Shown: positions 7,301 to 25,070 of the stretch, one piece after another | Layout: each line of letters opens with the position of its first letter | How positions within the stretch are numbered: position 1 is the first letter of the stretch | Origin: Mycoavidus cysteinexigens | GTDB lineage: Bacteria > Pseudomonadota > Gammaproteobacteria > Burkholderiales > Burkholderiaceae | DNA: 64,000 nucleotides | Reading direction: 5' to 3' | NCBI GenBank assembly: GCA_031963225.1 | Contig: JASSUD010000001.1 | Span: 23,942-87,941 of the forward strand | Position numbers and translations under genes: made by a program | The notes under the pieces: model-generated | Databases searched by the model: none | The model's input: the letters and a program-made list of their open reading frames with translations, nothing else | Told to the model about the DNA's origin: nothing

Positions 7301-7357
7301 AAAAACTAAGGGTATGAACGGATTGGTCTGTAAGACCTATCTGCGTTATATATGCGC
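7301..7357 (+). promoter_or_regulatory. Island promoter-like box, copy 1
   Basis: AAAAACTAAGGGTATGAACGGATTGGTCTGTAAGACCTATCTGCGTTATATATGC. TTGGTC (7323-7328), 17 nt, TTATAT (7346-7351) resembles sigma70 -35/-10. Lies about 60 nt upstream of the 7411 start. Four related copies elsewhere. Confidence 0.55.
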
Positions 7358-7410
7358 GTTATTACTCATAAGATGCTTGCAAAAAAGATGCATAAAAAGA
7401 GAGAGGCGCT

Positions 7411-9312
7411 ATGGTCAACCCCTTAGCCACTGAAACGTCATACAGTCCAGCAGCACCTCAGGCTACTACCGGAAACATAAAAAAGGGCGATTCCTTCAAA
7501 GCCCGTTTCGCGCAAGGTCCTTTTGGCCCTTTTATTCCTGCTGCTATCGAAGAGCAGGAAAAAGTTCCTCAAAAAGCAGTTCGCGATCCTTTCATCAGGC
7601 ATCTGACAACCGAGTATTTTGGAGCCGAGTACCACAGCAGTCTTGCGCATATACATGACAAGGCAGTGGCAGAAGCTTTTAGCCCTCCTCGTAAATCCTT
7701 TCTTAGACGCGTAGTGACGGCCCCTTTTGCCGCTTCTACATGGCGCATGAAAATGCTCCCGCCTCTCTCTCCTGAGATATTTATCCGGGGAGTAAAGACA
7801 CTGCCTTCTAGGAAAGAAGAAAAAGCAGAGCCAGCAACAAGCAATAGCCAGGATATGGTGCCGGCCTCACTGGCCGATAAAGTGCAGCTCTTAGAAAACG
7901 TTTCGGACAAACTAGATGCGCTGTTCAGAGAAAATATCCTGAATACCCGTAAGCTCTCTGTAGAAGACCGGAAAAAAGATCTAGATTTAATCAAAGATTA
8001 TCAGCAAAAGATTAGAGCGACTTATACAGCACCTGAGTCTATCGTGAAAAAGCAGGCCGCTTCTGCACCGCCTTTGATGCTAAAAGAGAGTGCATCTCCT
8101 ACTCAAAATTCGGTGGTGCAGACTGCTACTGAAGAAACTAGCTCTTCCCATTCTCGTCGCACTACGGTGTATGAAATTGTAGATGGGGAAGAGGAAGATT
8201 TTGAATGTATAGACACGCTTTATACACCGGGGGCTAATCCTTACGCTACTACCGTACAAGAGATTCTAGATGAAGAAACAGTAGAGTCTCTGGATATGAC
8301 GTATGCATTTTTTAATGCATCAGAAGGTGGGGAGGTTTCATATTTGAATGCCTCAGAAGACCCCTCTGAACAGACATTTTCCGAAGCATGGGCCGTCTTT
8401 AAGGCCACTGCCAAGAGCATTACTGAACATAATCGCCCCGAAGATGGGATAGTACAAAAAATCTGCTTGACCCTTCTTAGTAGCTTAAATAGAGTAGTAA
8501 GCTCTTTATGCATTCCAGGCCTGTCGCTTGTTACGGACATGACTAAATATGTATTTGAACTTCACGCATTGTCTAAGATTCGAGAATGGGAAAACAGGAA
8601 TGCAATTAGAAAAGCATTGATAGAGATTTCGAAACCCATAATAACTTCCTCAGAGGGAGAGGCATTAGATATGAACGCAGTCAGTAATATTAATAGTTTT
8701 ACCACAGAAACAGCCATTAATTTAGCCAATGCTACGGGCGCTGCTATGCAAGTGCATACAGAGGATGTAGCTTCAAAAATTGCTCAGCATACGGAAAAAT
8801 TACAAAAAGATTTAGATGCTGGTACAGTAAAACTACAGAAAGATTTGAATGCTGGTACAGCGAGACTACAAAAAGATTTTAATAACGGTGCCGCCATTCT
8901 CATTGATGGTAATGCCGCCATCATTGGAAAATTGGAAGCCATAGAAGCAAATCAGCGAAGACAGGAAGAACATCAGCGAAAATTAGCACAAGATGTTGCT
9001 CCTCTTTTAAGAGTGCGTAAAACTTCAACTAATTCACTTGGCTCAAACGCTGACTCCGCTATTGGTCTTAATGATGGATCTCCATCTGGCTCTCGTTCTG
9101 TTAGCCCAGTAATAACTGATTCTCATAGTCCAGATTTTATCCATAAAGCTGAAGTGCAAGAGATCGTCGATAAGGCCTTGAAAGCCCAGGAAGAAAAACA
9201 TGCTAAAGAGATTGCTGGGTTAGAAGCTAAAGTGGATCGAACCAATCAACTATTGGAACAGTTTCTCCTTGGGCTACAAGCAAAAAATCAAGCAGCTGCA
9301 CAGGGTAATTAA
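7411..9312 (+). CDS. Family A: hypothetical 633-aa protein with coiled-coil C-terminal half and Ser-rich tail
   Basis: GAGAGAGG RBS. Internal 3x33-bp repeat (KLQKDL-D/N-AGT). Weakly hydrophobic segment ICLTLLSSLNRVVSSLCIPGLSLV. Ser-rich GSRSVSP region. A truncated copy of its 5' end is at 21591-21695. Confidence 0.75.
   Translation: MVNPLATETSYSPAAPQATTGNIKKGDSFKARFAQGPFGPFIPAAIEEQEKVPQKAVRDPFIRHLTTEYFGAEYHSSLAHIHDKAVAEAFSPPRKSFLRRVVTAPFAASTWRMKMLPPLSPEIFIRGVKTLPSRKEEKAEPATSNSQDMVPASLADKVQLLENVSDKLDALFRENILNTRKLSVEDRKKDLDLIKDYQQKIRATYTAPESIVKKQAASAPPLMLKESASPTQNSVVQTATEETSSSHSRRTTVYEIVDGEEEDFECIDTLYTPGANPYATTVQEILDEETVESLDMTYAFFNASEGGEVSYLNASEDPSEQTFSEAWAVFKATAKSITEHNRPEDGIVQKICLTLLSSLNRVVSSLCIPGLSLVTDMTKYVFELHALSKIREWENRNAIRKALIEISKPIITSSEGEALDMNAVSNINSFTTETAINLANATGAAMQVHTEDVASKIAQHTEKLQKDLDAGTVKLQKDLNAGTARLQKDFNNGAAILIDGNAAIIGKLEAIEANQRRQEEHQRKLAQDVAPLLRVRKTSTNSLGSNADSAIGLNDGSPSGSRSVSPVITDSHSPDFIHKAEVQEIVDKALKAQEEKHAKEIAGLEAKVDRTNQLLEQFLLGLQAKNQAAAQGN
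8797..8895 (+). repeat. 3 x 33-bp in-frame tandem repeat inside the family A gene
   Basis: AAATTACAAAAAGATTTAGATGCTGGTACAGTA, AAACTACAGAAAGATTTGAATGCTGGTACAGCG and AGACTACAAAAAGATTTTAATAACGGTGCCGCC. Confidence 0.8.
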
Positions 9313-9392
9313 AAATTTTTTTTTTAGAAAAACATATAGAGAATTTTATATATTTTGCAGAAAATTGCAGCGCAATAAAATATACTTATAAA

Positions 9393-9426
9393 ATGGCTCT
9401 TTGAAATAAAAAGGGCCATATTTTTA
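9393..9426 (+). terminator. Possible weak intrinsic terminator after the family A gene
   Basis: TGGCTCTTT / AAAGGGCCA imperfect stem followed by TATTTTT. Confidence 0.3.
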
Positions 9427-9478
9427 ATATGACCCCATCCATTTTTTGCTGCTGGCTAGTAGCTACAGGAAAATAAAT

Positions 9479-9826
9479 ATGAATTCTGCGGGTTCTATAC
9501 AACCACAGCGCACTGTTTGTAATGCTTCACTTATCGGCCAAGTTAACGAAGTTGGAAACATTGAAAAAGAGGAGGGCGGTGCAGTAAAGACTAATCTTCC
9601 GCTTGAAACGAGAAAGATTGCTCAGGAAGAACCGATATATTGGCGGATGGATACTGGTAAGGTGCTCACGGATTTAAACATTCGGCTGACGGTATTATTG
9701 TTCTGCACTATACCTTTTGCTTTTTTTGCTTCGACTGTCTTCCTATTTTGTGCACCAATTCTTGCCGCATTAATTTGCATTATAAAAACATGGTGTGACC
9801 TGATTAAAAGTCATCATGGATACTAA
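9479..9826 (+). CDS. Family B: small protein with one ~40-aa bilobed hydrophobic segment (115 aa)
   Basis: The ATG at 9479 follows the conserved leader CCATTTTTTGCTGCTGGCTAGTAGCTA shared with the 14930 and 21022 genes. Motif IAQEEPIYWR, then LTVLLFCTIPFAFFASTVFLFCAPILAALICII. Paralogues at 21022-21330 and pseudogene 14930-15250. Confidence 0.7.
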   Translation: MNSAGSIQPQRTVCNASLIGQVNEVGNIEKEEGGAVKTNLPLETRKIAQEEPIYWRMDTGKVLTDLNIRLTVLLFCTIPFAFFASTVFLFCAPILAALICIIKTWCDLIKSHHGY

Positions 9827-9936
9827 TATGGTTGAGCACACAAAGTTTATGGCAAGGGAAGTGCCTCAGGAAGCTCAACTGAATTGGATGCATTTTTATA
9901 AAAGAGAAAAAACTATTTAGATCAGGAAATAGAGAG

Positions 9937-10758
9937 ATGTGCCCTATCGCAATATCTTCAGCTAACCCTCTGTATCAGAGTCGGTTAAATTATCCTACTA
10001 TCGAAGATGATAGGGCAGCTCCTCTGCTACGCACAGCAGAGATTGGCGGATTGCTTGAAATGGAACCGTTATTGGTCATTCATGCACCTATTGAACAAGT
10101 GCATGCGCGCACATTTTCTTTTTCTACGACAACAAATCGGTTACAACCCTATATTGAAAGTCAGGCAAACTGGGATCCAAAAGGTTATCTGGTATGCTGG
10201 TTCTCAGCTGTTTCTTTGGGAATGTCTATACTAATTTTCAGTTTACACTGTATCGAAAAGTATCATGAAAATCATCAAGAGATACTGACTGCTCAGATTA
10301 TCAATATTCTTCTTACCTCGTTCAAGTACCTTCATTTTTTATTTTCCTGCCCTGCCTCTTGTATTAAATGGTCCCAAAAAGCAGCCAGATGGTTGTCGCC
10401 AAATCGCGCTTCAGAGCAGCGCATGGTACTAGCAAGCGCTTCACGCATTGTGCAAAAACCAACGAATTGCTTTTGGCCTACTATTCAATGGTGGGCACGG
10501 CTAGATAATAATGATTATTATTTACATGATGTATTAAGAGTGAGCTCCTTTATAACAGCTACGCTGAGCTTTTTTTTACACCTTATTGAAAAAAAACATG
10601 ATAACCATACGCCAATGCTATGGCTCGAGGGAGCGAACATCTGTCTTAACGTTTTTCTCATCTTGCATGATGTAGCAAGAATAGCTGTACAAGAATGGGG
10701 GCAACCGAGTCTATTGCCGCAGAATGCTATACGGATGACAAACTATCAAACTATCTAG
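9937..10758 (+). CDS. Family C: multi-pass membrane protein with duplicated H-x2-EK-x2-(E/D)NH motif (273 aa)
   Basis: LHCIEKYHENHQEILTAQIINILL and LHLIEKKHDNHTPMLWLEGANICL each sit between hydrophobic helices. C-terminus IRMTNYQTI. Paralogue at 21724-22476 ends IRMANYQTV. Confidence 0.75.
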   Translation: MCPIAISSANPLYQSRLNYPTIEDDRAAPLLRTAEIGGLLEMEPLLVIHAPIEQVHARTFSFSTTTNRLQPYIESQANWDPKGYLVCWFSAVSLGMSILIFSLHCIEKYHENHQEILTAQIINILLTSFKYLHFLFSCPASCIKWSQKAARWLSPNRASEQRMVLASASRIVQKPTNCFWPTIQWWARLDNNDYYLHDVLRVSSFITATLSFFLHLIEKKHDNHTPMLWLEGANICLNVFLILHDVARIAVQEWGQPSLLPQNAIRMTNYQTI

Positions 10759-10912
10759 TGCACGGTTGGTGTGAGGCAGAAATCCAAAGAATTGTTATTA
10801 ATAAAACATAAATTTTTGTGTATCACGGTCTATTTTAGAAACATGTGCTATGCATGTTTGGGAGTGTTGCTCACTAACTTTTTATCTTTAAACCTCATAT
10901 CTTTGCGGCAGG

Positions 10913-11086
10913 GTAGGTTGGTGGTGAGGAACGAACCCCATGCGCGCTAACTTAAGCCAAAGACCAGAATATATTGTCGCTAAACTGTACAAAAAGTTAA
11001 GCGAAAAAAGGGGATTTTTTCCATGAACAGGCTATCTTTTGGCTTAAGTTAGCGCGCATGGGAACGAACCCCAACATGCATACCAC
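10913..11086. repeat. REP unit with nested MITE (copy 2 of the composite at 198-370)
   Basis: GTAGGTTGGTGGTGAGGAACGAACCCCA + 118-bp insert + TGGGAACGAACCCCAACATGCATACCAC. Near-identical to 198-370 apart from a few substitutions. Confidence 0.85.
10941..11058. mobile_element. 118-bp MITE-like insert nested inside a REP unit (copy 2)
   Basis: Same TGCGCGCTAACTTAAGCC inverted termini and internal sequence as 226-343. Flanked by direct repeat GGAACGAACCCCA. Confidence 0.75.
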
Positions 11087-11398
11087 TGACTTTAATATTC
11101 CTGTTGCCGTTTTGTAGGCTGCTCTACAAAGGGACCGTGGCGTGTATGTGTTTGGATGTTCGCCCTGTAATTATTATTTCATTAGTTTGCACCATAGAAA
11201 TATGGTGCCGTCTACTTATGTCTGGTGATGGTTTCAATGCCTAAAGCGGCCAAATTTGGCTCAAGATGAAGGCAATCCAACGCCTTATCGTGAATGTAGA
11301 TAAGCCTTCTCTACCCATACTGCTAAAATCATACAACCCCCTCTGCAATATTTAGCCAAACCATGTATTTTTTTACAGAAAAATTTTATGTGAAAAGC

Positions 11399-11866
11399 TT
11401 ATGCAGTGAGCAGCAAAGGTCTTCTTATAATGGAAGCAGTAGGTTTTTTTTGAGAGTCTCTTTTATGCTGTTTATATAGCGACTGCATTTTTCTAAATTT
11501 GTTTTCTGCTTCTTCAAGTGCTTTGCTTATATTTTTTAGCATAAATGCGGTAGGTGATAAGAGAATAACGGGTGTTGCAGGAACTAATAGGAGACATACA
11601 GATATGTCTGGGGTTAAAGATGCAAAAAATATTGCAGTTATGGCTCCACATATTATAAATGTGATAGCGCTGGATGAGACTAATATTATTAATAAATTAA
11701 AACATATCTTTTCATATTCATTCAATTTTTGAATTTTATTTATTAATAGCTCTTCCGTGAGTATTTCATGTTCTGAAAAATAAGGTTCTGATGCTAAAAT
11801 CGGAAAAGTAGTCTTGCGCCATATATAATCTAATGGAGAAGGCCAATCTGAATTATAAATAACCAC
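11399..11866 (-). CDS. Family D: small two-TM protein (MFTFTSxW family)
   Basis: GTG at 11866 chosen by alignment with paralogue starts (TAAGGCGAGCTAT context shared with 23546). The track start 11932 is a TTG. Motifs DWPSPLDYIWRKTT, hydrophobic pair, AENKFRKMQSLYKQH, tail ASIIRRPLLLTA. Confidence 0.7.
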   Translation of the reverse strand: MVIYNSDWPSPLDYIWRKTTFPILASEPYFSEHEILTEELLINKIQKLNEYEKICFNLLIILVSSSAITFIICGAITAIFFASLTPDISVCLLLVPATPVILLSPTAFMLKNISKALEEAENKFRKMQSLYKQHKRDSQKKPTASIIRRPLLLTA

Positions 11867-12056
11867 TATAGCTCGCCTTACAATAAAAATAGAAGGTGTT
11901 TCAAATGGATGTGGCGTAATAGAAAACGCCAAAAAATATAATTCTTCTTTATTAGAATGGGTATGCCTTTCTAGACAAAATTAGAAAATCTGCAGGTTTC
12001 ATATTTTATGCAGTGAGCAGCAAAGGTCTTCTTGTACTAGAGGCAGTGGATTTTTT

Positions 12057-12488
12057 CTAATTCATTTCGTGTTGTTTATGTAATAACTGCATTTTTTGAA
12101 GTCGATTCTCTGCTTCTGTAAGCATAGCTGGTTGTATATGTTCATATACTAGATCCACAGATTTTAAAAATAAAAATGGAAACGCAATAAGCACAATAAA
12201 AATTAAAGCAGGTCCTAGAATTGGAAGTGAAAATACTGTCTCTGGAATAATTCCAATAATAGTCGGAAAGATTATTAAGGCAGTTATGAATGATACAGTC
12301 CAACTTTTAAAGTGGTGATATGGATCTTCATATTTTCTAAGGTTAATTATCCCGTCTTTTAATACCTCTTCCGTGATTATTTCATTATTGGAGATATAAG
12401 GTTCATGCGATAAAAATGAGGTCGTGGTATTCCTCCATACATAATTGCATACAGAAGGAGAGGACCAGTTTGAAGTAAAAGTAAACAC
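12057..12488 (-). CDS. Family D: small two-TM protein, C-terminal tail cut off by an in-frame TAG
   Basis: GTG start, MFTFTSNWSSPSVCNYVWRNTT, AENRLQKMQLLHKQH. After the stop at 12057-12059 the same frame still reads KKSTASSTRRPLLLTA-stop (12005-12056), which is the conserved family tail. Confidence 0.7.
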   Translation of the reverse strand: MFTFTSNWSSPSVCNYVWRNTTTSFLSHEPYISNNEIITEEVLKDGIINLRKYEDPYHHFKSWTVSFITALIIFPTIIGIIPETVFSLPILGPALIFIVLIAFPFLFLKSVDLVYEHIQPAMLTEAENRLQKMQLLHKQHEMN

Positions 12489-12599
12489 TTATAGTTCACC
12501 TGACAATAAAAAATAGGAGACATTTCAGATGGAAAGGGAGCGTAATAGAAAGCGCTGGAGAAATATGCTGTTTTCCGATGTGGTATGCCCATTTGCCTT

Positions 12600-14117
12600 C
12601 TAGCTCAAGTTACGAAAAATTTTGAACTGTTCAGGTTCTCTTAAGATAGGAGCGATTAACTTACAGTCCAATATGCCTCTTATAGGAGTAATTTTCCATA
12701 TATGCTTTTTTTCCCCTACGATCTGTAATGTATTATGGTCCCAGCTTATATTTTGGATAATTCCTAATAGAGGATCTACCGGTTTTTTCTGGAATGCTCC
12801 AGATTCTGTGGATAGTAATAAGATGGTCGTATTTCCTTCAAGCACAGCAAGCCAGCGTTCACAAGGAGAAAATTTGAATTGAACATTCTGAGCCGGTGTT
12901 AATGCAAAATGGCTTTGGACTCTTGCATGCTTATGGGAGTAAAGCCATATCGTGGCAGTTTGAGCACTGCCTTTGGCATTCATCTCCGCTAAGAGCAGCC
13001 ATTTTCCTTGGGGAGACACTGTGAGCTCGGTTATAGATGTGGGTTTATTTGCTATAGAGGACGCTTTTGAGTCAGTAGATTCGCAAGGCTCTATGCTTTT
13101 TTCAAGTTTGCCTGTTTTAGTCGACCATTGTTTAATGGTTTTTCCGTCTATTACAGTAAAAAAATGTTTTTTATCTGCTGAAAAGGCACTGGATGAAACG
13201 GTGCCTTTAATATGCATCACTTTAGCGGGTTGCGGTTTGATTTCTGCGCGGGTGGGTTCAAATCGTAGGGTTATGCGTTGGTAGGCGGCGTCTTCTGCTT
13301 CCTCTGCTGACGCTAGCATTTCTATTTCTTCTTGCGCTTGCAGCCTTGGCTCATGCACCTGAGGGGATGGGGCTGGCTGAAGCAAACTATTTTTAAGGAG
13401 GTCAGATTGTTCAAATTTATTTTTGGCTAAAATTCCTCTTGCACCTACTGCCCCCAGTGCTATTAGAGCAGTTGCCGAGGTAGTTACCCATATTGGCGCT
13501 ATTAAAACTGTGCCTATCTTCCATATTACACCTTTCAATAGCATACCTTTTAATACCGCAACCTCCCCTGCTGCTGTTGCGATAGTTGCCAAACCAGAAA
13601 TTTCTGCCGCCCTTTCTAGCGAATTAATAAATGCATTTTTCCACGCCAATACCTCAGCTTGCTCCGCACGCAATGCTTTCACTGCGTGTGACGAAAGCAT
13701 TTCTACATGAGGAAGCATAAGATACTGACTCTGTGCGCAAAACGTAAATTCTTCGCATCCTTCCCCTGAAAACTGTTTCACAGGCCCTTCTGAATCAGCA
13801 GGTTTACATATAATTTCTTTTTCCGCATTACGCCAAGCATGCCATTTACCGTCTAGGGATATTTCCTGCGGTTCTATTTCAGGTTCTGGTGCGGGTTTTG
13901 AAACGACGGGGGGCGTTTTAAGGAGCGGTAAGAGGCCGGTATTCAGGTTATTTTCTAATTCAGTGAAAGCAGTGGTGTTGTCTGGTGCTTCTCTGTGCTG
14001 AATTTTTGCCTGTCCTATAAACGTTCCAATGGTGTTTTTCGCTACTCTTTGCTCCATATTGAGCGGAGACGGTGGAGCGTTGGTAGCTTGTACAGAAGAG
14101 GATGGTCCAATATTCAC
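12600..14117 (-). CDS. Family E: WD-like repeat protein with central bilobed hydrophobic segment
   Basis: GTG at 14117 preceded by GGAGAAATA, identical to the starts of the two paralogues. The track start 14204 is an alternative. WD-like units ISLDGKWHAWRN, FSADKKHFFTVIDGKTIKQWS, VSPQGKWLLLAE..TIWLYS, FSPCERWLAVLEG. TM pair GLATIATAAGEVAVLKG..IGTVLIAPIWVTTSATALIALGAVG. Confidence 0.8.
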   Translation of the reverse strand: MNIGPSSSVQATNAPPSPLNMEQRVAKNTIGTFIGQAKIQHREAPDNTTAFTELENNLNTGLLPLLKTPPVVSKPAPEPEIEPQEISLDGKWHAWRNAEKEIICKPADSEGPVKQFSGEGCEEFTFCAQSQYLMLPHVEMLSSHAVKALRAEQAEVLAWKNAFINSLERAAEISGLATIATAAGEVAVLKGMLLKGVIWKIGTVLIAPIWVTTSATALIALGAVGARGILAKNKFEQSDLLKNSLLQPAPSPQVHEPRLQAQEEIEMLASAEEAEDAAYQRITLRFEPTRAEIKPQPAKVMHIKGTVSSSAFSADKKHFFTVIDGKTIKQWSTKTGKLEKSIEPCESTDSKASSIANKPTSITELTVSPQGKWLLLAEMNAKGSAQTATIWLYSHKHARVQSHFALTPAQNVQFKFSPCERWLAVLEGNTTILLLSTESGAFQKKPVDPLLGIIQNISWDHNTLQIVGEKKHIWKITPIRGILDCKLIAPILREPEQFKIFRNLS

Positions 14118-14329
14118 TATTTCTCCTATTTTTGAAAGAAAGGGAAGAAATACAGATGATGAGTAGAAAAGTACGATAAGTAACCAAACCGCGGTTTTTA
14201 TCATTAAAAGAAGTCCGTGCTACTAGTGTTTTTTACGGATATTTTTCTTAAGAAATGGGCTTAAAAATAGGGTTTCTACTGTCTGCTTTGAAATTGCCGT
14301 TGATAGAACCCTTTTACACGGGCATCTTG

Positions 14330-14425
14330 GTAGGTTGGTGGTGACAAAGGAACCCCAACATGCACAACACTTACTTTTAATCTTTGCGCTCGGCCTATCA
14401 GCGACTTGCGTAATATCAGTTAATA
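14330..14425. repeat. REP half-element (reverse unit plus tail and outer terminus)
   Basis: GTAGGTTGGTGGTGACAAAGGAACCCCAACATGCACAACACTTACTTTTAATCTTTGCGCTC..TGCGTAATATCAGTTAATAA. Collinear with 198-232 plus 359-442 of the first element. Confidence 0.8.
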
Positions 14426-14430
14426 AAAAA

Positions 14431-14568
14431 GCAGATGGCCTCGTAGAGCGATTTAATGAGATTGAATAGCGTTTCACTAAAATTGAAGCAGGCATTGAGC
14501 TACTTTTGAAGCAAGCTGGCTTACAGCCTCCGACAAATCCACAGCCACGAGTAGAGAACCCTGCATAA
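14431..14568 (+). pseudogene. Possible 3' remnant of a coiled-coil (family A / 29492-like) gene
   Basis: Reads VERFNEIE-stop-RFTKIEAGIELLLKQAGLQPPTNPQPRVENPA-stop. No start codon. It begins directly at the REP half-element, and its tail loosely resembles the C-termini of the 7411 and 29492 products. Confidence 0.3.
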
Positions 14569-14600
14569 GGATTTTCCTCTTCCTAAACAGATAGAAATAG

Positions 14601-14636
14601 TGCCCCACTCACTCAGCATGTTTGGGGCATTTTTTT
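14601..14636 (+). terminator. Intrinsic terminator (repeated spacer module)
   Basis: TGCCCCA..16-nt loop..TGGGGCA followed by T7. The same module recurs at 21390-21426, in each case about 60 nt before a promoter-like box. Confidence 0.55.
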
Positions 14637-14693
14637 GATGTTTTTACTTGGTATGCGATAGAGAAGTATTTATGCATAAGTATTCTATAAACT

Positions 14694-14750
14694 AAAAAAT
14701 TAAGGGTATAAATGGATAGGTCTGTAGAGGCAGTTCACGTTATATATGCG
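14694..14750 (+). promoter_or_regulatory. Island promoter-like box, copy 2
   Basis: AAAAAATTAAGGGTATAAATGGATAGGTCTGTAGAGGCAGTTCACGTTATATATGCG. The box and about 180 nt downstream (to 14929) are collinear with 19220-19455. Confidence 0.5.
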
Positions 14751-14929
14751 TTTTAGTAATTGTAAGATTGCGATGACGCCTAAAAGGAGAAGGTTAGATC
14801 AACTCCTTCCCTTCCGTATTGAAATTCCATTCAGTTCAGCACCTTCTCGGGCTGCCAATTTTTAATACGATCCATCTCTATTTATACAATCCATTTTTTG
14901 CCGCCACCTAGTAGCTATGCGGAGATAGT

Positions 14930-15250
14930 ATGCGTTTTTTATACCTTTTATATCAGCACGCTGTACCGTTATCAATGGCTAAATTCATGCTGCAGAAATT
15001 AACCATGAAGAAAATTGAAAAATGGGATCACAGTGCACTAAAAGGTAATCATGCTCTTATTGAAATAGTGAACACTGTTCATGAAGAGCCTGTATATCAG
15101 CGAATTGTACTGGTAGGGCGCTCACGGATTTAAAAATTCGGCTGACGGTATTATTGTTCTGCACGATAAATTTTGCTATTTTTGCTTTTGACTGTCTTCC
15201 TATTTTGTGCCCCAATTCTTGAAGTGTTGATTTTCATTATAAAAGCGTAG
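14930..15250 (+). pseudogene. Family B pseudogene (frameshifted)
   Basis: Same leader and RBS (GCGGAGATAGTATG) as 21022. The ORF stops at 15131-15133, while nucleotide homology to 9660-9800 (CGGATTTAAA.ATTCGGCTGACGGTATTATTGTTCTGCAC..) continues in another frame to about 15250. Confidence 0.7.
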
Positions 15251-15323
15251 TAATCAGCTTATCGGCCGCAAGGAATATAAAAGCCTATTTAAAATTTCTC
15301 GGCTCGCATCCGTTGGGATGCCT

Positions 15324-16345: not shown

Positions 16346-16392
16346 AGAATGCTCAGAGTATAGAGACTTTCGAAAGCTGCAAACCAGCTATT

Positions 16393-16875: not shown

Positions 16876-16877
16876 GA

Positions 16878-17372
16878 TTATGCCATTAAATAAAAAGGAT
16901 TGTTTCTAACAGAAGTGTTTGGTGGGTTTTGAAAGTCCATTCTATGTTGTTTAGATAGAAGCTGTACTTGGTGGAGTCGATTATCTGCTTCATTAAGTAA
17001 TTCTGCTACATGTAAAAGTATAATAATTTGAGGTATCCAAAATAAAATTGGCAGCCCAATCAGCACAAATAGAAATAAAAGTATTCCAATATTTGAATGC
17101 ATAAATACTGCGGTAGGGATGGTTATAAAAGCAGTTGGCATAGCTATAAAAGAGGCCAAAGCTGAAAAGCAAGACGTTGTATGAATCCATGAATCTTTAA
17201 GATACTCATTTAGTTGTGTAATGCCATTTTCTAATACACTTTCTGTGAGCACTTCCTCCTCAGAGATATAGGGGGCATGTGATATAAACGAAGAAGTAGT
17301 CTTTCTCCATAGATATTCGCATATAGAAGGTGAAGACCAATGTGAAGTGGGAATAAACACTATTGCACCCAT
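16878..17372 (-). CDS. Family D: small two-TM protein (164 aa)
   Basis: IPTSHWSSPSICEYLWRKTT, hydrophobic pair, ADNRLHQVQLLSKQHR, tail SVRNNPFYLMA. Start at ATG 17372, or the homologous GTG at 17360. Confidence 0.75.
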   Translation of the reverse strand: MGAIVFIPTSHWSSPSICEYLWRKTTSSFISHAPYISEEEVLTESVLENGITQLNEYLKDSWIHTTSCFSALASFIAMPTAFITIPTAVFMHSNIGILLFLFVLIGLPILFWIPQIIILLHVAELLNEADNRLHQVQLLSKQHRMDFQNPPNTSVRNNPFYLMA

Positions 17373-17494: not shown

Positions 17495-18940
17495 TTATGA
17501 AAGCATGCTATATCTTAGGGTTCCGCGTGATAGGGGAGGTATGAGTTGTGCGTGCAGTGCATCCCCCACCGAAATAATTCTCCATACGCGATGGTTTGCG
17601 CCTACAACCTGCAGTTCATTATTTTCCCAGCGTATGTGTTGAATAGGCATTAATGCCGCATCTAAACGTGTGCTTTGAAATTCTCCGGATTCCGTGGTTA
17701 GGTGTAAGAGAGTGTTTCCTCCTTCAAGCACGGCAAGCCAGCGCTCACAGGGAGAGAATTCAAATTGAACGCCATTAGTGGTCGCCAATTCAAAATGGCT
17801 TTGCATTCTTGCGTGTTTACGGGAGTAGAGCCACATTTTGGCGCTGTGGTTGGTGCTTTGGGTATCTACCTCCACTAAGAGCAGCCATTTCCCTTTAGGC
17901 GAAACTTTGAGTTCAGTGATAGAGGTAGGCTTATTGGCTGTAGAAGATACGGCTGCATCAACAGGCTGGCAGGGTTCAATGCTCTTTTCAAGTTTGCCAG
18001 TTTTGGTAGACCATTGTTTAATGGTTTTTTCATCTATGACGGTAAAAAAATGTTTTTTGTCGGCTGAAAAGGCAGTGGAAGAGACATTGCCTTTAATATG
18101 TATGATTCTAGGTGCTTGAGGCTTTATTTCTGCGCGCGTGGGCTCAAAATGCAAGGTTATGCGCTGGTAGATTTCTTTATCTGTGGACGCTTGCGCTAGC
18201 ATTTCTAATTCCTCTTCTGCTTGCGGGCTCTTTTTTTGCTGGGGTTGCGTATTTACAAGAAGTTCTAGCTTTTCATTTTTTTGCTTTTTTAAAAGATTTC
18301 TACTGCTTATGGTTCCTACTACTGCTAGAGCGGTTGCTGGTGCACTTACCCATATCGGCGTTACCAACAGGGTACCTAGTTTGATTGCGAACCCTTTTAA
18401 TAATGCCCCTTGGATAATAGCAATGTCTGCCCCTGCAATTGCTACACTGAAGGAGCCGGATAAAAAAGTCGCTATATTTTTGAAAGTATCTATATCGTTC
18501 AATAACTCCCTTTGCTCCGCCTGCAATACGCTTACTTCTTCCTGCGAAAGGGTTTTTACCTCGGGTCGGATGAGATATTGGCTCTTTGCGCAGAAAGTAA
18601 ACTCTTTACATCCTTCCCCTGCAAACAGTTTCACCGGTCCTTTTGCATAAACCGGCTTGCATATAATGTCTCCTCCTTCATCGCGCCAGGCTAGCCATTT
18701 ACCATCTGGCGATATTTCTTGCTGTCTGAGGTCTGTTGGCTCAGACGGAGGAAATAGCCCTGCTATAAAGTCATCTGCCAGCTCAGTTAGGCTGTCATCA
18801 TTACCTGCGGGCTCTCTTGCTAGAATTCTTTCCCGTCCTAAATAGGTTTCGAAGAAGGTTCTCGCTTCCCGTCGACGCATATGCGCGTCAGTCTGGTGAG
18901 AGCTTGTGGCTTGTACGGAAGAAGAGTTTCCAATATTCAC
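17495..18940 (-). CDS. Family E: WD-like repeat protein with central bilobed hydrophobic segment (481 aa)
   Basis: GGAGAAATA-GTG start. ISPDGKWLAWRDEGG, TM pair SFSVAIAGADIAIIQG..LGTLLVTPIWVSAPATALAVVG, FSADKKHFFTVIDEKTIKQWS, VSPKGKWLLLVE..KMWLYS, FSPCERWLAVLEGG. Confidence 0.85.
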   Translation of the reverse strand: MNIGNSSSVQATSSHQTDAHMRRREARTFFETYLGRERILAREPAGNDDSLTELADDFIAGLFPPSEPTDLRQQEISPDGKWLAWRDEGGDIICKPVYAKGPVKLFAGEGCKEFTFCAKSQYLIRPEVKTLSQEEVSVLQAEQRELLNDIDTFKNIATFLSGSFSVAIAGADIAIIQGALLKGFAIKLGTLLVTPIWVSAPATALAVVGTISSRNLLKKQKNEKLELLVNTQPQQKKSPQAEEELEMLAQASTDKEIYQRITLHFEPTRAEIKPQAPRIIHIKGNVSSTAFSADKKHFFTVIDEKTIKQWSTKTGKLEKSIEPCQPVDAAVSSTANKPTSITELKVSPKGKWLLLVEVDTQSTNHSAKMWLYSRKHARMQSHFELATTNGVQFEFSPCERWLAVLEGGNTLLHLTTESGEFQSTRLDAALMPIQHIRWENNELQVVGANHRVWRIISVGDALHAQLIPPLSRGTLRYSMLS

Positions 18941-19219
18941 TATTTCTCCTGATTGAAGAAAGGGAGGGAAGACAGCGGTAGATGCAAAAACGCTGTCGGT
19001 TGTTGAACCCGGCTTTCTACCATTCAGAAGCAGATTTGCTACTACAGTTTATAACTGATAATTTTTCTTGCATGCGCTATTTTTTTAAAATGCTGGTTTA
19101 GGCTGCTTTTTTTATGACTACCCTTTTTACCTTATTTTTTGCTGCCTCATTTTGATATTTTTTTATAGGCTAAGGTGTGCCTACACAAAAAAATAAAAAT
19201 ATATTTTCTCTATATCCCG

Positions 19220-19274
19220 AAAAACTCAGGCTATAAATGGATAGGTGTGTAGAGGTAGTTCACGTTATATACGT
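19220..19274 (+). promoter_or_regulatory. Island promoter-like box, copy 3
   Basis: AAAAACTCAGGCTATAAATGGATAGGTGTGTAGAGGTAGTTCACGTTATATACGTG. Followed by the same ~180-nt leader as copy 2, ending in a family-B leader remnant (TTTTGCTGCTGCCTAGTAGCTAGG) with no ORF. The next gene starts at 19609. Confidence 0.45.
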
Positions 19275-19608
19275 GTTTTTGTAATTGTAAGATTGCGGTG
19301 ATGCCTAAAAGGAGAAGGTTAGATCAACTCCTTCAGTATTGAAATTCCACTCAATTCAGCGCCTCCTCGGGCTGCCAATTTTTAATACGATCCATCCCTA
19401 TTTATACAATTCATTGAATTTTGCTGCTGCCTAGTAGCTAGGCGGCGATAGCTAGACAAACTAGCCATTTTTCTAAGCTAGGGCACTTACTCTAAATCAG
19501 GGATGAGTTTGCGTTAGAGCACTCGAATCAAAGACCGATAGCCAGGTTAGTTAGGAGCAGCCGTCTGTCTTAAATTAGAGGGCAATTTACCCAAAGCTCA
19601 TCAATCCA

Positions 19609-20661
19609 ATGATAAATAAAATAATTGGTGTTCCCGTTTTTAATCGATCCGTCTTGGGCAATGATCCAATGTATTACGTCAAAAAGGGCAAAGAATGCTT
19701 CGACTGGGCCCATCATCAGCACCACAACATGATTGTTGAGACCCAACGTCTGTGCGCTAAAGTGCAAGATACGCTGAAAAGAGTTATACAGCTTGGAAAG
19801 GTTGAGGAAGAGGCGGAGCAGGACGCGTTACGTTATCCGCAATCTTTTTTAGATATATATCGAAAAGCGTATCACGCAAAACAAGAAATTGATGCTTTAG
19901 CAAAAGAAATTGCGCAATCTATACGTCCTCCTGGAAGAGTTCTTGAAGCGCCGATCAAATCAAAGCAAAGAGCAATGGAAAAGATCCATCGCGATTACGG
20001 TGGAAATGTAAATAAAATAACGGATCTGGCCAGAAATACTCTTATTGTTGACCCTAGAAATTTTAGGAAAGTATGCGAAAAACTGAAAGCACGGGGGGCC
20101 CGGCTCAAGGTATTGTTAGAAGAGAACGTACCGTCTGGCTATAGCGGGATTAATGCAACGCTGACCACCCAAACAGGGCTCATTGCGGAGGTCAAGATTA
20201 ATTCCCCTCAGATGATTTATACGGAAGTTCCAAAAAATAAAGCGAAAGAAGTTTTGGGTGAGAAGCTTTTTTGCAAAATCGATCAATGGGCGAGAGTGCA
20301 CGGGTTCCGTGCTGGAGAAGGTCATAAACTATACGAAAAACTACGGGCGCTAGGATCGCAAGACACAGATAAAAAATCTAAAATTGAGAAAAAGAGTCAG
20401 CGTTACTATTTCCAGATAAGAAATATGCCCTTGCGTTTTCAAGACGGAACAAGAATTTACAGAAATGAGCATGAGCAGGCAATGAAAAAGATCATAGAGG
20501 GCTCAGCGCAACTACAAGAAGGCCGATCTTCTCCTCGGCCGGCAGGCTCCTTCATGCTGCGGAAATCACGTAGCAATGGACATACTCCACTAATAACCAA
20601 ACAAAATTTGCGCGCAAGCTTGGATTGGTCCCTTACATTACCAGACACAGCCATCACTTAA
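19609..20661 (+). CDS. Divergent RelA/SpoT-domain (small alarmone synthetase / toxSAS-like) nucleotidyltransferase (350 aa)
   Basis: Ordered motifs PIKSKQRAMEKI, ITDLARNTLIV, PSGYSGINATL, AEVKINSPQM and GHKLYEKLR match the order of RSH synthetase-fold motifs as recalled. No clear RBS, so the start is uncertain. Confidence 0.5.
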   Translation: MINKIIGVPVFNRSVLGNDPMYYVKKGKECFDWAHHQHHNMIVETQRLCAKVQDTLKRVIQLGKVEEEAEQDALRYPQSFLDIYRKAYHAKQEIDALAKEIAQSIRPPGRVLEAPIKSKQRAMEKIHRDYGGNVNKITDLARNTLIVDPRNFRKVCEKLKARGARLKVLLEENVPSGYSGINATLTTQTGLIAEVKINSPQMIYTEVPKNKAKEVLGEKLFCKIDQWARVHGFRAGEGHKLYEKLRALGSQDTDKKSKIEKKSQRYYFQIRNMPLRFQDGTRIYRNEHEQAMKKIIEGSAQLQEGRSSPRPAGSFMLRKSRSNGHTPLITKQNLRASLDWSLTLPDTAIT

Positions 20662-20718: not shown

Positions 20719-20918
20719 ATGCACAAAGAATCCAGCGTTGACACTGACTGCCCCTTGAGCGGAAAATTAACAATGGTGCGGGAGAGGAGGCGGTTGCGGC
20801 TTCAGAATTAAAAGTCGCCCTTAAGCAGATCAAAGCATTGCAAAGAATGCTAGTCAAAAAGACTTTGGAAGCAGGAATTTTGCTCGAAGCGGTGGAATAT
20901 GGCTGGGTAAAAAACTAA
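20719..20918 (+). mobile_element. IS3-family transposase orfA remnant
   Basis: 20790-20918 reads [42 protein letters not shown]-stop, typical of the leucine-zipper end of IS3-type OrfA. It ends in AAAAAAC, like an IS3 slippery site. The upstream part is out of frame, and no orfB or inverted repeats were seen. Confidence 0.5.
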
Positions 20919-20964
20919 GGCTACAAATGGATATACGTATAGAGACGGCTCACGTTATATACGC
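20909..20964 (+). promoter_or_regulatory. Island promoter-like box, copy 4
   Basis: AAAAAACTAAGGCTACAAATGGATATACGTATAGAGACGGCTCACGTTATATACGC. Overlaps the end of the IS3 orfA remnant. About 55 nt upstream of the 21022 start (short leader variant). Confidence 0.5.
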
Positions 20965-21021
20965 AGTTCAGTAATTTTTGCTGCTGCCTATGCTGCTGCC
21001 TAGTAACTACGCGGAGATAGT

Positions 21022-21330
21022 ATGTATTTTGCTACACCTTTTATATCAGCACACTATGCCGTTATTAATGATCAATTCCATACTGCCAAAATTGACTCAA
21101 CAATTGAACAAAGAGATGGCAGCAGAGTAAAGAGTAATTCTCCCTATCAAAGAGAGAGAATTGCGCAGGAAGAGCCATATTTGCAGAGGGGCATGGCTAC
21201 GGCACTTACTGATCAGGCCCTTCTACTGATCGCATTGATCTGCCTTGCGCCTGTTGCTTTTGTAGCTCCACTTTCCTCCTTATTTTGTATACCGATTCTT
21301 ATTACACTGCTTTTGCTTGCAGAAGTATGA
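21022..21330 (+). CDS. Family B: small protein with bilobed hydrophobic segment (102 aa)
   Basis: GGAGATAGT-ATG. IAQEEPYLQRG, then ALLLIALICLAPVAFVAPLSSLFCIPILITLLLLA. Confidence 0.7.
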   Translation: MYFATPFISAHYAVINDQFHTAKIDSTIEQRDGSRVKSNSPYQRERIAQEEPYLQRGMATALTDQALLLIALICLAPVAFVAPLSSLFCIPILITLLLLAEV

Positions 21331-21426: not shown

Positions 21427-21483
21427 GATGTTTTCGCTTGGTGTGTGATAGTGAGGTAATTATGCATAGATACTCCATAAACT

Positions 21484-21540
21484 AAAAAACTACGGGTATG
21501 AATTGATTGGTCTGTAAGACCTATTCGCGTTATATATGCC
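21484..21540 (+). promoter_or_regulatory. Island promoter-like box, copy 5
   Basis: AAAAAACTACGGGTATGAATTGATTGGTCTGTAAGACCTATTCGCGTTATATATGCC. The closest match to copy 1, and the similarity continues through the leader to the ATG at 21591. Confidence 0.55.
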
Positions 21541-21590
21541 TGCTATTACTCGTAAAATGCTTATAAGAAGTGTATAAATAGAGAGGCGCT

Positions 21591-21695
21591 ATGCTAAAAC
21601 CATTAGGCATGGAAGCTACATATAGTAAATACTTCAAAATGCAAAGTGGGTTCCTTATGGTTGCAGCGTTTTATGATGGTATGCCCTGTATTTAG
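21591..21695 (+). pseudogene. Family A 5' remnant (34 codons)
   Basis: AGAGAGGCGCTATGCTAAAACCATTAGGCATGGAAGCTACATATAGT parallels AGAGAGGCGCTATGGTCAACCCCTTAGCCACTGAAACGTCATACAGT at 7400-7446. Stop at 21693-21695. Confidence 0.65.
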
Positions 21696-22476: not shown

Positions 22477-22528
22477 TTTAGTAATAAAACATAATTTTTT
22501 GCGTATTATTTTATATATTTCGAGGATT

Positions 22529-22705
22529 GTGGTTTGCATGTTGGGGTTCGTGCCTCACCCCAACCTACCGAGATGCATATGTAAAATGGCTTTACAAACC
22601 TCCACCAACCCAAGAACAAGCAAAGGACGATAGGTTGGGGTGAGGCACGAACCCCAACATGCACACCACAGTCTTTTTGAATACCTGCATAACATCAGTG
22701 AAATA
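22529..22705. repeat. REP pair (forward + reverse units) with tail
   Basis: GTGGTTTGCATGTTGGGGTTCGTGCCTCACCCCAACCTAC .. ATAGGTTGGGGTGAGGCACGAACCCCAACATGCACACCAC, then ..CTGCATAACATCAGTGAAATAA. Lies between convergent genes. Confidence 0.85.
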
Positions 22706-23078: not shown

Positions 23079-23546
23079 TTATGCCATGAGTAACATAGGT
23101 CTTTTTCTAATAGAAGCGGTGGTTTCTTTTGCAGAATCAATTTTGCATTTCGCATTGAGTAATCGCATATGGTGAAATCTATTTTCTGCTTCTTCGCGTG
23201 CTTTATCTATATTCGTAAGTATAACTATGAGAGGAGACATAAAAGAAAATGGTATCATAGGCCATAGCAGAAGCAATGAAGAGGTGATTGGAGTTAAAGA
23301 TGAAAATAATATTGCTGTAATGATCCCAGATATGATAAATGCAGTTACAGAGAATATTAAAATATTTTTTAAAAAATGAATAAATGTATAATCGTATTCC
23401 TTTAATTTCTCAATTTTGCTTCGTAATATGTCTTCGGTGATTATTTCATTTTCAGGAAAGTAGGGTCTGGATGCTAAAAGTGGAATCGTAGCCTGTCTCC
23501 ATAGATAATTATGTGGAGAAGACCAATCTGAGGTAAAGGTAAACAT
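23079..23546 (-). CDS. Family D: small two-TM protein (155 aa)
   Basis: ATG start, MFTFTSDWSSPHNYLWRQAT, hydrophobic pair, AENRFHHMRLLNAKCK, tail ASIRKRPMLLMA. Confidence 0.75.
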   Translation of the reverse strand: MFTFTSDWSSPHNYLWRQATIPLLASRPYFPENEIITEDILRSKIEKLKEYDYTFIHFLKNILIFSVTAFIISGIITAILFSSLTPITSSLLLLWPMIPFSFMSPLIVILTNIDKAREEAENRFHHMRLLNAKCKIDSAKETTASIRKRPMLLMA

Positions 23547-23573
23547 ATAGCTCGCCTTATGGTCAAAAATATA

Positions 23574-25070
23574 TTATGAAAGCATGCTAAATCGCACGGA
23601 TCTTTGTGGAAGAGGCGGGATGAGCTGTGGATATAGACTGTTTTCAACAGGAATAATTTTCCATATGCGGTTATCTGCTCCTACAACTTGCAGTTCATTT
23701 TGAACCCAGTGTATGCGCTGAATAGGGGTTAATGGCGGGTCTAGCCGTTTTCTTTGGAATTCTCCAGATTCTGTGGTGAGGCGTAAGAGGGTGTGCCCTC
23801 CTTCAAGTACTGCTAGCGAGCGCTCGCAGGGGGAAAATTCAAATTGAACGGTATTCGTTGTTGTTAATGAAAAATGGCTTTGTATTCTTCCATGCTGACG
23901 GGAGTAGAGCCACATGCTGGCTTTTTTAACAGAATCTTGTGGATGTACTTCTGCTAAGAGTAGCCATTTTCCTCGCGGGGATATTTTAAGTTCGGTTATA
24001 GAGGCGGGTTTATTCGCGACAGAGGGCGTGGCTGTGCTAGTAGGTGGTGCGCAAGGCTCTATGTTTTTTTCAATTTTGCCTGTTTTAGTAGACCATTGTT
24101 TAATGGTTTTTCCGTCTACTACGGTAAAAAAATGTTTTTTATCCGCTGAAAAGACACTGGAAGAAATGGTGCCTTTAATATACATAATTTTAGATGCTTT
24201 CGGCTTTATCGCTTCTCGCGTAGGTTCAAAGTGGAGGGTTATGCGCTGATAGGTGGCCTCTTCTGCAGGCTCTTGCATTTCTATGGTTTCTTCTTGTGCT
24301 TGTTCTTCCTGTTTAGGCGCTTGTGCCGGTTCTGTGGATGGGAGCGGGATGTTTTTAATAAGGTCAGATTTTTCAATTTTATTTTTTATAAAGACCCCTC
24401 CTGTACCAGCTGCTCCTAGCGTTAATAAAACGGTTGCAGAGCTCGTTAGCCATATTGGGGCGATTAAAAGTGTGCCTACTTTTAATAGTGCGCCTTTCCA
24501 TAATATGCCGCTCACTATTGCAAAATCTCCTCCCATTAGTAAGAAACTCGTAATAGTGGATGCCAGAGCTGCCGGGCGTGTAAAGTCAAGGTTTGCATTT
24601 TTTTTCCTCAACAACTCCATTTGCTCTGCAAAAAATGCTTTCATTTCTTGTGAGGACAGCATTTCTACCTGGGGGATCATGAGATATTGACTCTGTGGAC
24701 AAAAGCTAAACTCTTCGCATTGCTCTCCTAGAAAGCGTTTTACAGGCCCTTCTGTGTTAGCTGGTTTCCATAAAATTTCTTGTTCTGCATTACGCCAGGC
24801 GTGCCATTTGCCATCTAGTGAAGTTTCCTGGGGCTCTATCTCGGGCTCTGTAGGTGGTATGACTTCTGCAGTATTCACAAACGGTAGGATGTTTTCTACC
24901 AGATTCGTTTGCAATTCAACGAAATTTTGCTTACCTGGTGCTTCTCTTTGTTGAATTTCAGTACGTCCCACACACGTATGGATGCGGTTTGTGATTTCCC
25001 TCTGCGTTATATTGAGTAGAGGTTGTTGAGAACTGCTGGCTTGCACGGAAGAAGAGTTTCCAATATTCAC
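23574..25070 (-). CDS. Family E: WD-like repeat protein with central bilobed hydrophobic segment (498 aa)
   Basis: GGAGAAATA-GTG start. TSLDGKWHAWRN, TM pair ALASTITSFLLMGGDFAIVSG..VGTLLIAPIWLTSSATVLLTLGAAG, FSADKKHFFTVVDGKTIKQWS, ISPRGKWLLLAE..SMWLYS, FSPCERSLAVLEGG. Confidence 0.85.
   Translation of the reverse strand: MNIGNSSSVQASSSQQPLLNITQREITNRIHTCVGRTEIQQREAPGKQNFVELQTNLVENILPFVNTAEVIPPTEPEIEPQETSLDGKWHAWRNAEQEILWKPANTEGPVKRFLGEQCEEFSFCPQSQYLMIPQVEMLSSQEMKAFFAEQMELLRKKNANLDFTRPAALASTITSFLLMGGDFAIVSGILWKGALLKVGTLLIAPIWLTSSATVLLTLGAAGTGGVFIKNKIEKSDLIKNIPLPSTEPAQAPKQEEQAQEETIEMQEPAEEATYQRITLHFEPTREAIKPKASKIMYIKGTISSSVFSADKKHFFTVVDGKTIKQWSTKTGKIEKNIEPCAPPTSTATPSVANKPASITELKISPRGKWLLLAEVHPQDSVKKASMWLYSRQHGRIQSHFSLTTTNTVQFEFSPCERSLAVLEGGHTLLRLTTESGEFQRKRLDPPLTPIQRIHWVQNELQVVGADNRIWKIIPVENSLYPQLIPPLPQRSVRFSMLS

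Follow-up and report, generated by a model that had tools for sequence, protein, structure and literature searches.

A low-GC island of Mycoavidus with orphan hairpin-protein families that may act as Inc-like host-membrane effectors

Introduction

Lineage-specific families of hairpin-membrane effectors are a known phenomenon, the chlamydial Inc proteins being the closest described system for the locus reported here. We know of no lineage-specific hairpin-membrane effector family in fungal endosymbionts, and the effectors of endofungal Burkholderiaceae are almost unknown. Here we analyse a 64-kb stretch of DNA (the window) from Mycoavidus, a member of the Burkholderiaceae and an obligate endosymbiont of Mortierellaceae fungi (Mortierella-type), in which five protein families, A to E, recur within an island flanked by housekeeping genes; all coordinates are positions in the window and strands are given relative to it. 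The region is best read as a lineage-specific low-GC island of the Mycoavidus chromosome that is rapidly turning over, and we favour, with about even confidence, the interpretation that it encodes secreted, Inc-like host-membrane effectors aimed at fungal membranes.

Several described systems bear on this interpretation. Mycoavidus genomes are reported to carry genes of type III and type IV secretion systems (T3SS and T4SS; PMC5877345; PMC5282467). The NLR-like proteins of Mycoavidus have a helical N-domain that is common to the NLRs of the fungal host, and horizontal transfer has been suggested (PMC9815663). Known members of the Tas1/Apk group of toxins are fused to a PAAR domain (type VI secretion system, T6SS) or to a MuF domain (phage), always with a following Tis1-like immunity gene (PMC10083569). 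The C-terminal GYQTI of LAMP1 serves in sorting by the adaptor protein (AP) complexes AP-1 and AP-3 and in internalisation by AP-2 (PMC5297682). Nothing comparable to the present locus was found in the literature for Mycoavidus, the related literature being concerned with the genus Mycetohabitans.

Orphan families and their shared design

A preliminary description of this DNA had listed families A to E together with an upstream box and several remnants, and all-vs-all BLASTP and DNA repeat finding recovered families B to E, the box and the B, D and A remnants at the coordinates given there, far above chance. Family D has five copies (31-56% identity, E=1e-17 to 3e-61), family E three (52-57% identical, with E values reaching 1e-170 or lower) and family B two intact ones (41% identity, E=1e-8), and the two C proteins are 34% identical (E=5e-46). 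For A to D, the view that the families are uncharacterised was borne out, as nothing above the cut-offs was found in Pfam, NCBIfam or PADLOC and A1, B3 and the D profile had no sequence relatives in the Protein Data Bank (PDB). With PADLOC, ten proteins of the island, including the neighbouring NACHT protein, gave no significant match: A1, B, C, E, the Tas1-like protein and the NACHT protein had none at all, two others had weak coiled-coil matches (ZorA at 7.6e-7 for the A-like open reading frame [ORF] and LmuB at 6.6e-4 for an ORF of 188 amino acids [aa]), and D1a had a chance-level match (0.005) to a candidate model. Among 5.8 billion proteins, D forms five clusters, C six and E five, from few NCBI or Logan assemblies, and a full HMMER search of 1.84 billion representative proteins with the C profile returned seven matches, all of them family members. 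A pattern scan that covered a single genome for each prokaryotic species found relatives of E solely in the Mycoavidus cysteinexigens metagenome-assembled genomes (MAGs) JASSUF and JASSUK, apart from one unrelated weak WD40 match; an additional E member is present in the sister genome JASSUL. When 13 genes of the window were paired with their JASSUK orthologues, the ratio of nonsynonymous to synonymous substitution rates (dN/dS) came to 0.12-0.45; the island genes are thus functional and under somewhat relaxed purifying selection, and are not decaying ORFs.

A simple hydropathy scan and the uncharged stretches agreed with the earlier observation that most families carry paired hydrophobic helices. 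Families B, D and E as well as the A-like ORF have internal or C-terminal hydrophobic hairpins, and no protein of families A to E has a hydrophobic segment in its first 30 residues (E1 being taken from its GTG start). A bilobed uncharged domain of at least about 40 aa is present in three of the five D proteins, in the A-like ORF (51 aa) and in ORF 29492-30664 (47 aa); B lies near this limit (33-36 aa), E and C are weaker, and A1 has no such domain. In a crude comparison of the first 25 residues, using one protein per family, the fraction of S/T/P/N/Q was 0.40 in the island and 0.29 in the housekeeping proteins of the window (p=0.007), and the island N-termini also have fewer acidic residues and fewer Leu. 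Proteins of families E and B begin in a similar way, with MN-x-x-S-x-x-S-[VI]-Q, and so do unrelated repeat proteins at locus L008 of JASSUL. These are three paralogous proteins (917, 860 and 533 aa; L008 552-7960) with degenerate HEAT/ARM-like repeats and no Pfam matches on record, located just upstream of an E-D pair; two of the three start with MN/MD-x-NSA-x-GSSS, and all three share the C-terminus ...FQNAWKWFL.xIPSAFRVH.

Family C is represented by C1 (9937-10758, + strand; 273 aa, ending NYQTI) and C3 (21724-22476, + strand; 250 aa, ending NYQTV; dN/dS 0.24). Alignments showed that two H-x2-E-K-x2-[ED]-N-H motifs are conserved throughout the family, the sole replacement being that of the first His of motif 2 in the most distant member, P0025. 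In the AlphaFold2 (AF2) model of C1, helices 84-105/113-137 and 194-217/224-254 form two hairpins, with a predicted local distance difference test score (pLDDT) of about 80 in the helices, and the His/Glu motifs lie at the turns; the uncharged stretch is 20-24 aa per lobe. The C-terminus NYQT[IV] is present in nearly every member, even where overall identity is only about 33%; two members differ from it by one residue each (NCQTI and NYHTI), and in one member four residues follow it. A Foldseek search of the PDB with the C model found only generic helical bundles (E>0.3), and the idea that the His/Glu motifs belong to a di-iron or four-helix-bundle enzyme was dropped, as it was without any support.

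The D proteins, all encoded on the - strand, fall into two subtypes. D-alpha comprises the two-transmembrane (two-TM) protein D1a (11399-11866; 155 aa, with its start corrected to GTG 11866) and its closest paralogue D3 (23079-23546; 155 aa; dN/dS 0.29), and D-beta comprises D1b (12057-12488; 143 aa), D2a (16393-16875; 160 aa; dN/dS 0.27) and D2b (16878-17372; 164 aa; dN/dS 0.36). Uncharged stretches are 53-66 aa long in three of the five copies and 25-33 aa in D1a and D1b, and the hairpins are strongly hydrophobic, with a peak of 2.5-2.9 in a 19-residue Kyte-Doolittle window. D1b has lost its C-terminal tail through a premature stop, and the tail-coding DNA persists at 12006-12056. This tail, a basic/hydrophobic [KR][KR]-x-x-L-L-x-[AT], was seen in four of the five copies (11399-12056, 16393-16443 and 23079-23129), with a degenerate NNPFYLMA in D2b.

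Family E consists of E1 (12600-14117; 505 aa), E2 (17495-18940; 481 aa; dN/dS 0.37) and E3 (23574-25070; 498 aa), all on the - strand. The three genes had been recognised correctly in the preliminary description, but the start of E1 had been placed at ATG 14204; all E genes have a conserved GTG start behind an AGGAGA Shine-Dalgarno sequence, which in E1 is at 14117. From this start, E1 has an N-terminal blade, a hydrophobic hairpin and a WD40-type propeller; the central hairpin of the family has an uncharged stretch of 26-31 aa and is preceded by an amphipathic helix. In the AF2 model of E3, the C-terminal ~210 residues (274-483) form beta-propeller strands with pLDDT mostly 70-86, and Foldseek matched them to WDR5, G-beta and TAF5 at about 1e-8 (probability 1.0, ~210-280 columns), whereas Pfam beta-propeller matches for E stayed below the cut-offs.

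At the edge of the island lies a gene (742-6612, + strand) for an NLR-like protein of 1956 aa, with an ARM-like helical N-domain (Pfam ARM_5, 1.4e-28), NACHT (6e-14), pentapeptide repeats and WD40 (9e-20). Its last ~330 residues are homologous to E1-E3 (BLASTP E=1e-10 to 1e-12; hhalign probability 98%), and a second collinear BLASTP high-scoring pair joins E residues 75-112 to NACHT-WD residues 1631-1669. Based on these two collinear segments, E looks like the end of an NLR-like propeller with a hydrophobic insertion of ~140 residues between the first and the remaining blades. Large NLR-like proteins were observed in several copies per Mycoavidus genome (742-6612 on the + strand of the window, L006 2033-7741 and L004 ~7118-12250).

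A1 (7411-9312, + strand) is a polar protein of 633 aa without family matches, with a weakly hydrophobic central segment and short apolipoprotein-like repeats (33 nt, 2.7 tandem copies, at 8796-8883); its orthologue in JASSUK is 84% identical (dN/dS 0.29). Family A had been taken as single-copy, but an ORF of 675 aa (25409-27436, - strand), co-oriented with E3 and D3, has the layout of A1 and a weak collinear similarity to it (E=2e-4). In addition to its 51-aa bilobed domain, this A-like protein has an Apolipoprotein match of 4.6e-8, under the Pfam cut-off, and a 96-nt tandem repeat at 26070-26505 (4.6 copies, 85% matches) encoding 32-aa amphipathic repeats, the copy number of which may vary between strains. 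The JASSUK A-like orthologue could be aligned across 608 of the 675 codons. B1 (9479-9826, + strand; ~115 aa from the corrected start, ATG 9479) begins with MNSAGSIQ and ends in a hydrophobic hairpin with 33 uncharged aa, and B3 (21022-21330, + strand; 102 aa; dN/dS 0.45) has a hairpin with 36.

A Tas1-type gene within the island

The gene at 19609-20661 (+ strand) had been described as RelA/SpoT-like; the fold class was correct, and a more specific assignment can be made, since residues 74-271 match residues 243-434 of the Pseudomonas aeruginosa (p)ppApp-synthetase toxin Tas1 (PDB 6ox6_A, E=2.4e-39). Identical stretches include K-S-x3-A-x2-K, D-L-A-R-N-T, G-Y-S-G and E-[VI]-x-[VI]-N-S-P, covering nucleotide-binding and catalytic parts. 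The gene is kept in JASSUK (91% identity, dN/dS 0.25). Residues 1-73 gave no Pfam or NCBIfam match, and no PAAR or MuF delivery domain was found. Upstream of the gene, at 19218-19461 (+ strand), DNA repeat analysis placed the third copy of the box together with a B-type 5' leader; for this reason the Tas1-like gene appears to have captured an island promoter. Downstream follow, on the + strand, what we take from our reading of the sequence to be a remnant of an IS3-type transposase OrfA (20760-20900), the fourth box and B3, which is the sole intact ORF there. No recognisable Tis1- or Aph1-like gene adjoins the Tas1-like gene, and neither the PDB nor Pfam contains a relative of B3; a gene for immunity may be located at another site. 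This combination, with neither a delivery domain nor a recognisable immunity neighbour and with an island promoter, is not described for the toxin family.

Organisation and evolution of the island

Over the island the GC content is 36-43%, against mostly 44-51% where the window carries housekeeping genes. Bacterial housekeeping genes lie on both sides of the island; those in the rest of the window include thiC, glnA, bamD, tsaD, efp/earP, uvrC and pgsA. Host-DNA contamination or a chimeric contig was rejected, because palindromic repeats and Shine-Dalgarno-led starts are common to the island and the flanking housekeeping genes and synteny is found in independent MAGs; the repeat, which also occurs in the rest of the window, shows the island to be integral to the chromosome.

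The five families had been proposed to work together as one module that was duplicated as a unit, in three copies. This proposal did not hold, as the families were found apart from one another at other loci, the divergence between copies is uneven and JASSUK differs from the window. For example, a B-B-C cluster without D or E lies beside another NACHT-WD gene on contig 14 of JASSUK (L006) and converges on an ankyrin-repeat gene; an E-D pair (41% and ~30% identical) without A, B or C lies beside queF/pyrF on contig 15 of JASSUL (L008) and converges on a gene resembling leucine-rich repeat (LRR) genes; and C stands alone among housekeeping genes at L010 and L014, although the flanks of some of these outside loci are limited by contig ends. 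In the sister genomes, ankyrin, LRR and NACHT-WD proteins are neighbours of the families. The combinations that stay together are two co-oriented pairs: B followed by C, and E followed by one or two D genes. Separation elsewhere had been named in advance as grounds for abandoning the module, as had hits to well-characterised families; the former was seen in part, and the latter did not occur for A to D.

Between the first and the third of the three copies, identity is 57% for E, 51% for D, 41% for B and 34% for C, and B1 and the B2 pseudogene are about 90% identical in DNA. The history is therefore a mosaic of segmental duplication, paralogue recombination and pseudogenisation and not a single block duplication. 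Decayed members include the B2 pseudogene (approximately 14930-15250, + strand), which has frameshifts and stops and whose DNA is 81-91% identical to the 3' half of B1, and a D remnant (16174-16304, - strand) that is 91% identical to part of D2b. In JASSUK, the syntenic region is without window 10940-16366 (D1a, D1b, E1, the second box, the B pseudogene, a coiled-coil ORF and the D remnant), the C gene is chimeric, and a 9.5-kb insertion separates the C3 and D3 orthologues (NODE_4, L003 12273-19095), representing a strain-specific gain or loss. The insertion contains two paralogous ankyrin proteins (859 and 992 aa; Ank_2 1.4e-34), small coiled-coil ORFs and a coiled-coil/WD protein.

An upstream box of ~70-85 nt occurs in five copies on the + strand, beginning at 7299, 14693, 19218, 20908 and 21483, and its 25-nt core gave four matches against none expected by chance. 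The first (7299-7385) precedes A1; the second lies at 14693-14779, the third is that ahead of the Tas1-like gene, and the fourth lies at 20908-20976. The fifth, together with an A remnant of 34 codons, spans 21483-21695; the remnant, at 21591-21695, derives from the start of A1 (MLKPLGMEATYS, compared with MVNPLATETSYS in A1). The box behaves as a duplicated promoter/leader element. A consensus promoter scan was uninformative for it, giving fewer matches than shuffled sequence, and an RNA gene was rejected, the sole Rfam match in the window being a tRNA.

Palindromes resembling repetitive extragenic palindromic (REP) elements had been counted as a feature of the module at its points of convergence. 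We found that the palindrome GTTGGGGTGAGGCACGAACCCCAACATGC and its variants are a genome-wide intergenic repeat, with 11 copies (at 156, 14335, 22536, 22634, 27652, 29332, 29425, 38119, 44887, 44981 and 53774) throughout the window, in island and housekeeping intergenic regions alike and often as inverted pairs; a role as module component was therefore rejected. REP-like palindromes lie at the convergence of C1 and D1a (10937-11094), and a REP pair with 46-nt arms that are 93% complementary lies at 22525-22673.

Other features of the window

A coiled-coil ORF of 188 aa (15324-15890, - strand), taken from the ORF list, was unrelated to A-E by BLASTP and Pfam. Beyond the A-like gene, the orphan ORFs 27917-28789 (+ strand) and 29492-30664 (- strand) extend the island and are 91% and 69-76% identical, respectively, in JASSUK. 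The latter encodes 390 aa, of which 47 form an uncharged hydrophobic domain, has the highest dN/dS of the set (0.53) and is probably part of the island as well. Another pocket of low GC content (~38%), with housekeeping genes on either side, contains the orphan ORFs 42308-44836 (+ strand, 842 aa) and 45099-46133 (+ strand, 344 aa), which have no Pfam matches and are separated by a REP pair; their products may likewise be candidate effectors. Besides the IS3-type remnant near the Tas1-like gene, the window holds an intact YhgA-like (Transposase_31) gene at 53956-54945, and mobile-element activity may contribute to the rearrangements.

Discussion

The several unrelated orphan families (A and A-like, B, C, D and E) share one design, a polar N-terminus without a Sec signal peptide combined with one or two hydrophobic helical hairpins. 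If they are host-membrane effectors, such proteins would avoid insertion into the bacterial membrane and pass into the fungal cell, presumably by contact-dependent secretion of type III or possibly type IV, and their hairpins would insert into a host membrane with both ends toward the fungal cytosol, in the manner of chlamydial Inc proteins. There, E would display a WD40-type propeller borrowed from its NLR-like neighbour, C would display a putative YxxPhi sorting signal, NYQT[IV], at its C-terminus, with its two hairpin caps, rich in His and Glu, exposed on the other face, and the A-like proteins would present their amphipathic repeats of apolipoprotein type. The shared promoter/leader box was duplicated together with the plus-strand genes and appears also to have been captured by the Tas1-type gene. 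An Inc-type role is suggested by the intracellular life of the bacterium, the strain-variable orphan families, the low GC content, the hairpins without signal peptide, the propeller shared with an NLR-like protein and the ankyrin, LRR and NLR-like neighbours; the N-termini rich in S/T/P/N/Q and the NYQT[IV] tail point further in this direction. The preliminary description had tentatively drawn a parallel to the membrane-inserted effectors known from intracellular bacteria; since the organism is an obligate intracellular symbiont, this parallel is apt.

Several points weigh against this interpretation. Secretion and host localisation are putative, and the T3SS and T4SS are known from reports on the genus and not from this genome. 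Hairpin proteins without a signal peptide are commonly also bacterial inner-membrane proteins, and the strong hydrophobicity of D could favour insertion into the bacterium's own membrane. In C, helices 2 and 4 are only weakly hydrophobic, so that it may not be a four-pass membrane protein, and because a YxxPhi signal is short, the match to LAMP1 could be a coincidence. We found no statement in the literature on enclosure of Mycoavidus by a host-derived membrane. The N-terminal composition test compared 13 with 21 proteins whose ORF starts were uncurated, and the AF2 models were built from 5-7 sequences with a mean pLDDT of only 51-57.

The likeliest alternative, which we consider possible but unlikely, is that the families are the bacterium's own inner-membrane proteins (for envelope remodelling, stress, or small transport or anchor functions) that have expanded in a hypervariable region and stay in the cell. 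Hairpins without signal peptide suit Sec/YidC-independent insertion or insertion dependent on the signal recognition particle, those of D and B are very hydrophobic, C occurs singly among housekeeping genes at two loci, and purifying selection fits any function. However, the families are limited to few Mycoavidus genomes and differ in copy number between sister strains, they are low in GC and keep ankyrin, LRR and NLR-like company, it is not obvious what a WD40 propeller or a YxxPhi tail would do in the bacterial cytoplasm, and the N-terminal composition is unlike that of housekeeping proteins.

The constant order of E followed on the same strand by one or two D genes, kept even in a distant genome (41% and 30% identity), and the Tas1 domain, a proven antibacterial toxin (PMC10083569), could instead be read as parts of a polymorphic toxin/immunity locus directed against other bacteria, in which E and the Tas1-like protein would be toxins, whereas D, which follows E, and B would confer immunity as cognate or orphan proteins accumulating in arrays. 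Variable copy number and accumulating remnants would fit such a locus, and Mortierellaceae bearing Mycoavidus can also carry Mycoplasma-related endobacteria, which are possible competitors. We regard this as a doubtful proposition, for Pfam, NCBIfam and PADLOC reveal neither a toxin domain nor a delivery domain (PAAR, Rhs, LXG, MuF or any other) in E, and E is conserved over its full length, most of all in the C-terminal propeller, with no pattern of conserved N-terminus and variable C-terminus. Moreover, the two D subtypes do not track the E copies one-to-one, the Tas1-like gene has neither PAAR or MuF nor a Tis1-like ORF beside it, and B precedes C and does not stand behind a toxin gene.

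An anti-phage or NLR-type defence island, with the NACHT-WD protein as sensor and the small membrane proteins as abortive-infection effectors, is highly improbable: a NACHT NTPase with WD40 sensor repeats does stand at the island edge, with another beside B-B-C in L006, and membrane-disrupting effectors are common in defence systems, but none of the ten proteins scanned, the NACHT protein among them, has a significant PADLOC match, E-D and C are also found with no NACHT gene in the vicinity, and the helical N-domain of the NLR-like proteins, which NLRs of the host fungus share (PMC9815663), speaks for host interaction or horizontal transfer more than for phage defence.

Within the effector interpretation, a more ambitious version can be formulated, which we put forward as a long shot. 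B, C, D, E and the A-like protein would be the first Inc-like set of host-membrane effectors of a fungal endosymbiont; the C tail would ride the fungal AP pathway to the vacuole or to the symbiont compartment, a WD40 platform derived from an NLR would be anchored there by E, and the Tas1-type synthetase, without its delivery and immunity partners, would be co-delivered and act on the adenine-nucleotide pool of the host. The island provides a concrete list of candidates, marked by the hairpins, a C-terminal YxxPhi tail, a WD40 platform shared with an NLR-like protein that also has relatives in the fungal host, and a (p)ppApp synthetase in an undescribed context. It also displays how such a repertoire evolves: genes are duplicated locally, paralogues recombine and copies decay, so that sister strains come to differ widely. 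If the proteins remain in the bacterium, the island would represent a hypervariable set of orphan membrane proteins, mainly of interest for genome annotation.

Comparison with known systems

The C-terminus N-Y-Q-T-[IV] of the C family resembles the YxxPhi signal GYQTI of LAMP1, but it is a four-residue match in a bacterial protein, lies ~16 residues from the last helix, and its recognition by fungal adaptors is putative. The Tas1-like protein shares the synthetase toxin domain and the RelA/SpoT homologue (RSH)-type motifs with Tas1/Apk1 (T6SS) and Apk2 (phage MuF), but has an unrelated N-terminus of 73 aa and a C-terminal tail of ~80 aa in place of PAAR or MuF; in addition, it stands behind the B-type promoter/leader of the island and has no recognisable adjacent immunity gene. 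With the fungal and bacterial NLR-like NACHT-WD40 proteins, E has in common a propeller homologous to the NACHT-WD C-terminus, whereas it lacks the NACHT and helical N-domains and carries the ~140-residue hairpin insertion.

The most extensive likeness is to the chlamydial Inc proteins (as well as to the hairpin effectors of Legionella and Coxiella and to SseF/SseG of Salmonella). The differences are that no sequence homology is present, the host is a fungus, the bacterium is a betaproteobacterium and secretion and host localisation of the Mycoavidus proteins are putative; to our knowledge, E, a propeller interrupted by a hairpin, and C, with two His/Glu-capped hairpins, have no Inc counterparts. 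In both systems, however, an obligate intracellular bacterium carries many unrelated, lineage-restricted families without Sec signal peptides, often as clusters of paralogues, whose members have polar N-termini and a bilobed uncharged hydrophobic domain of 40-60 aa between hydrophilic, often coiled-coil regions.

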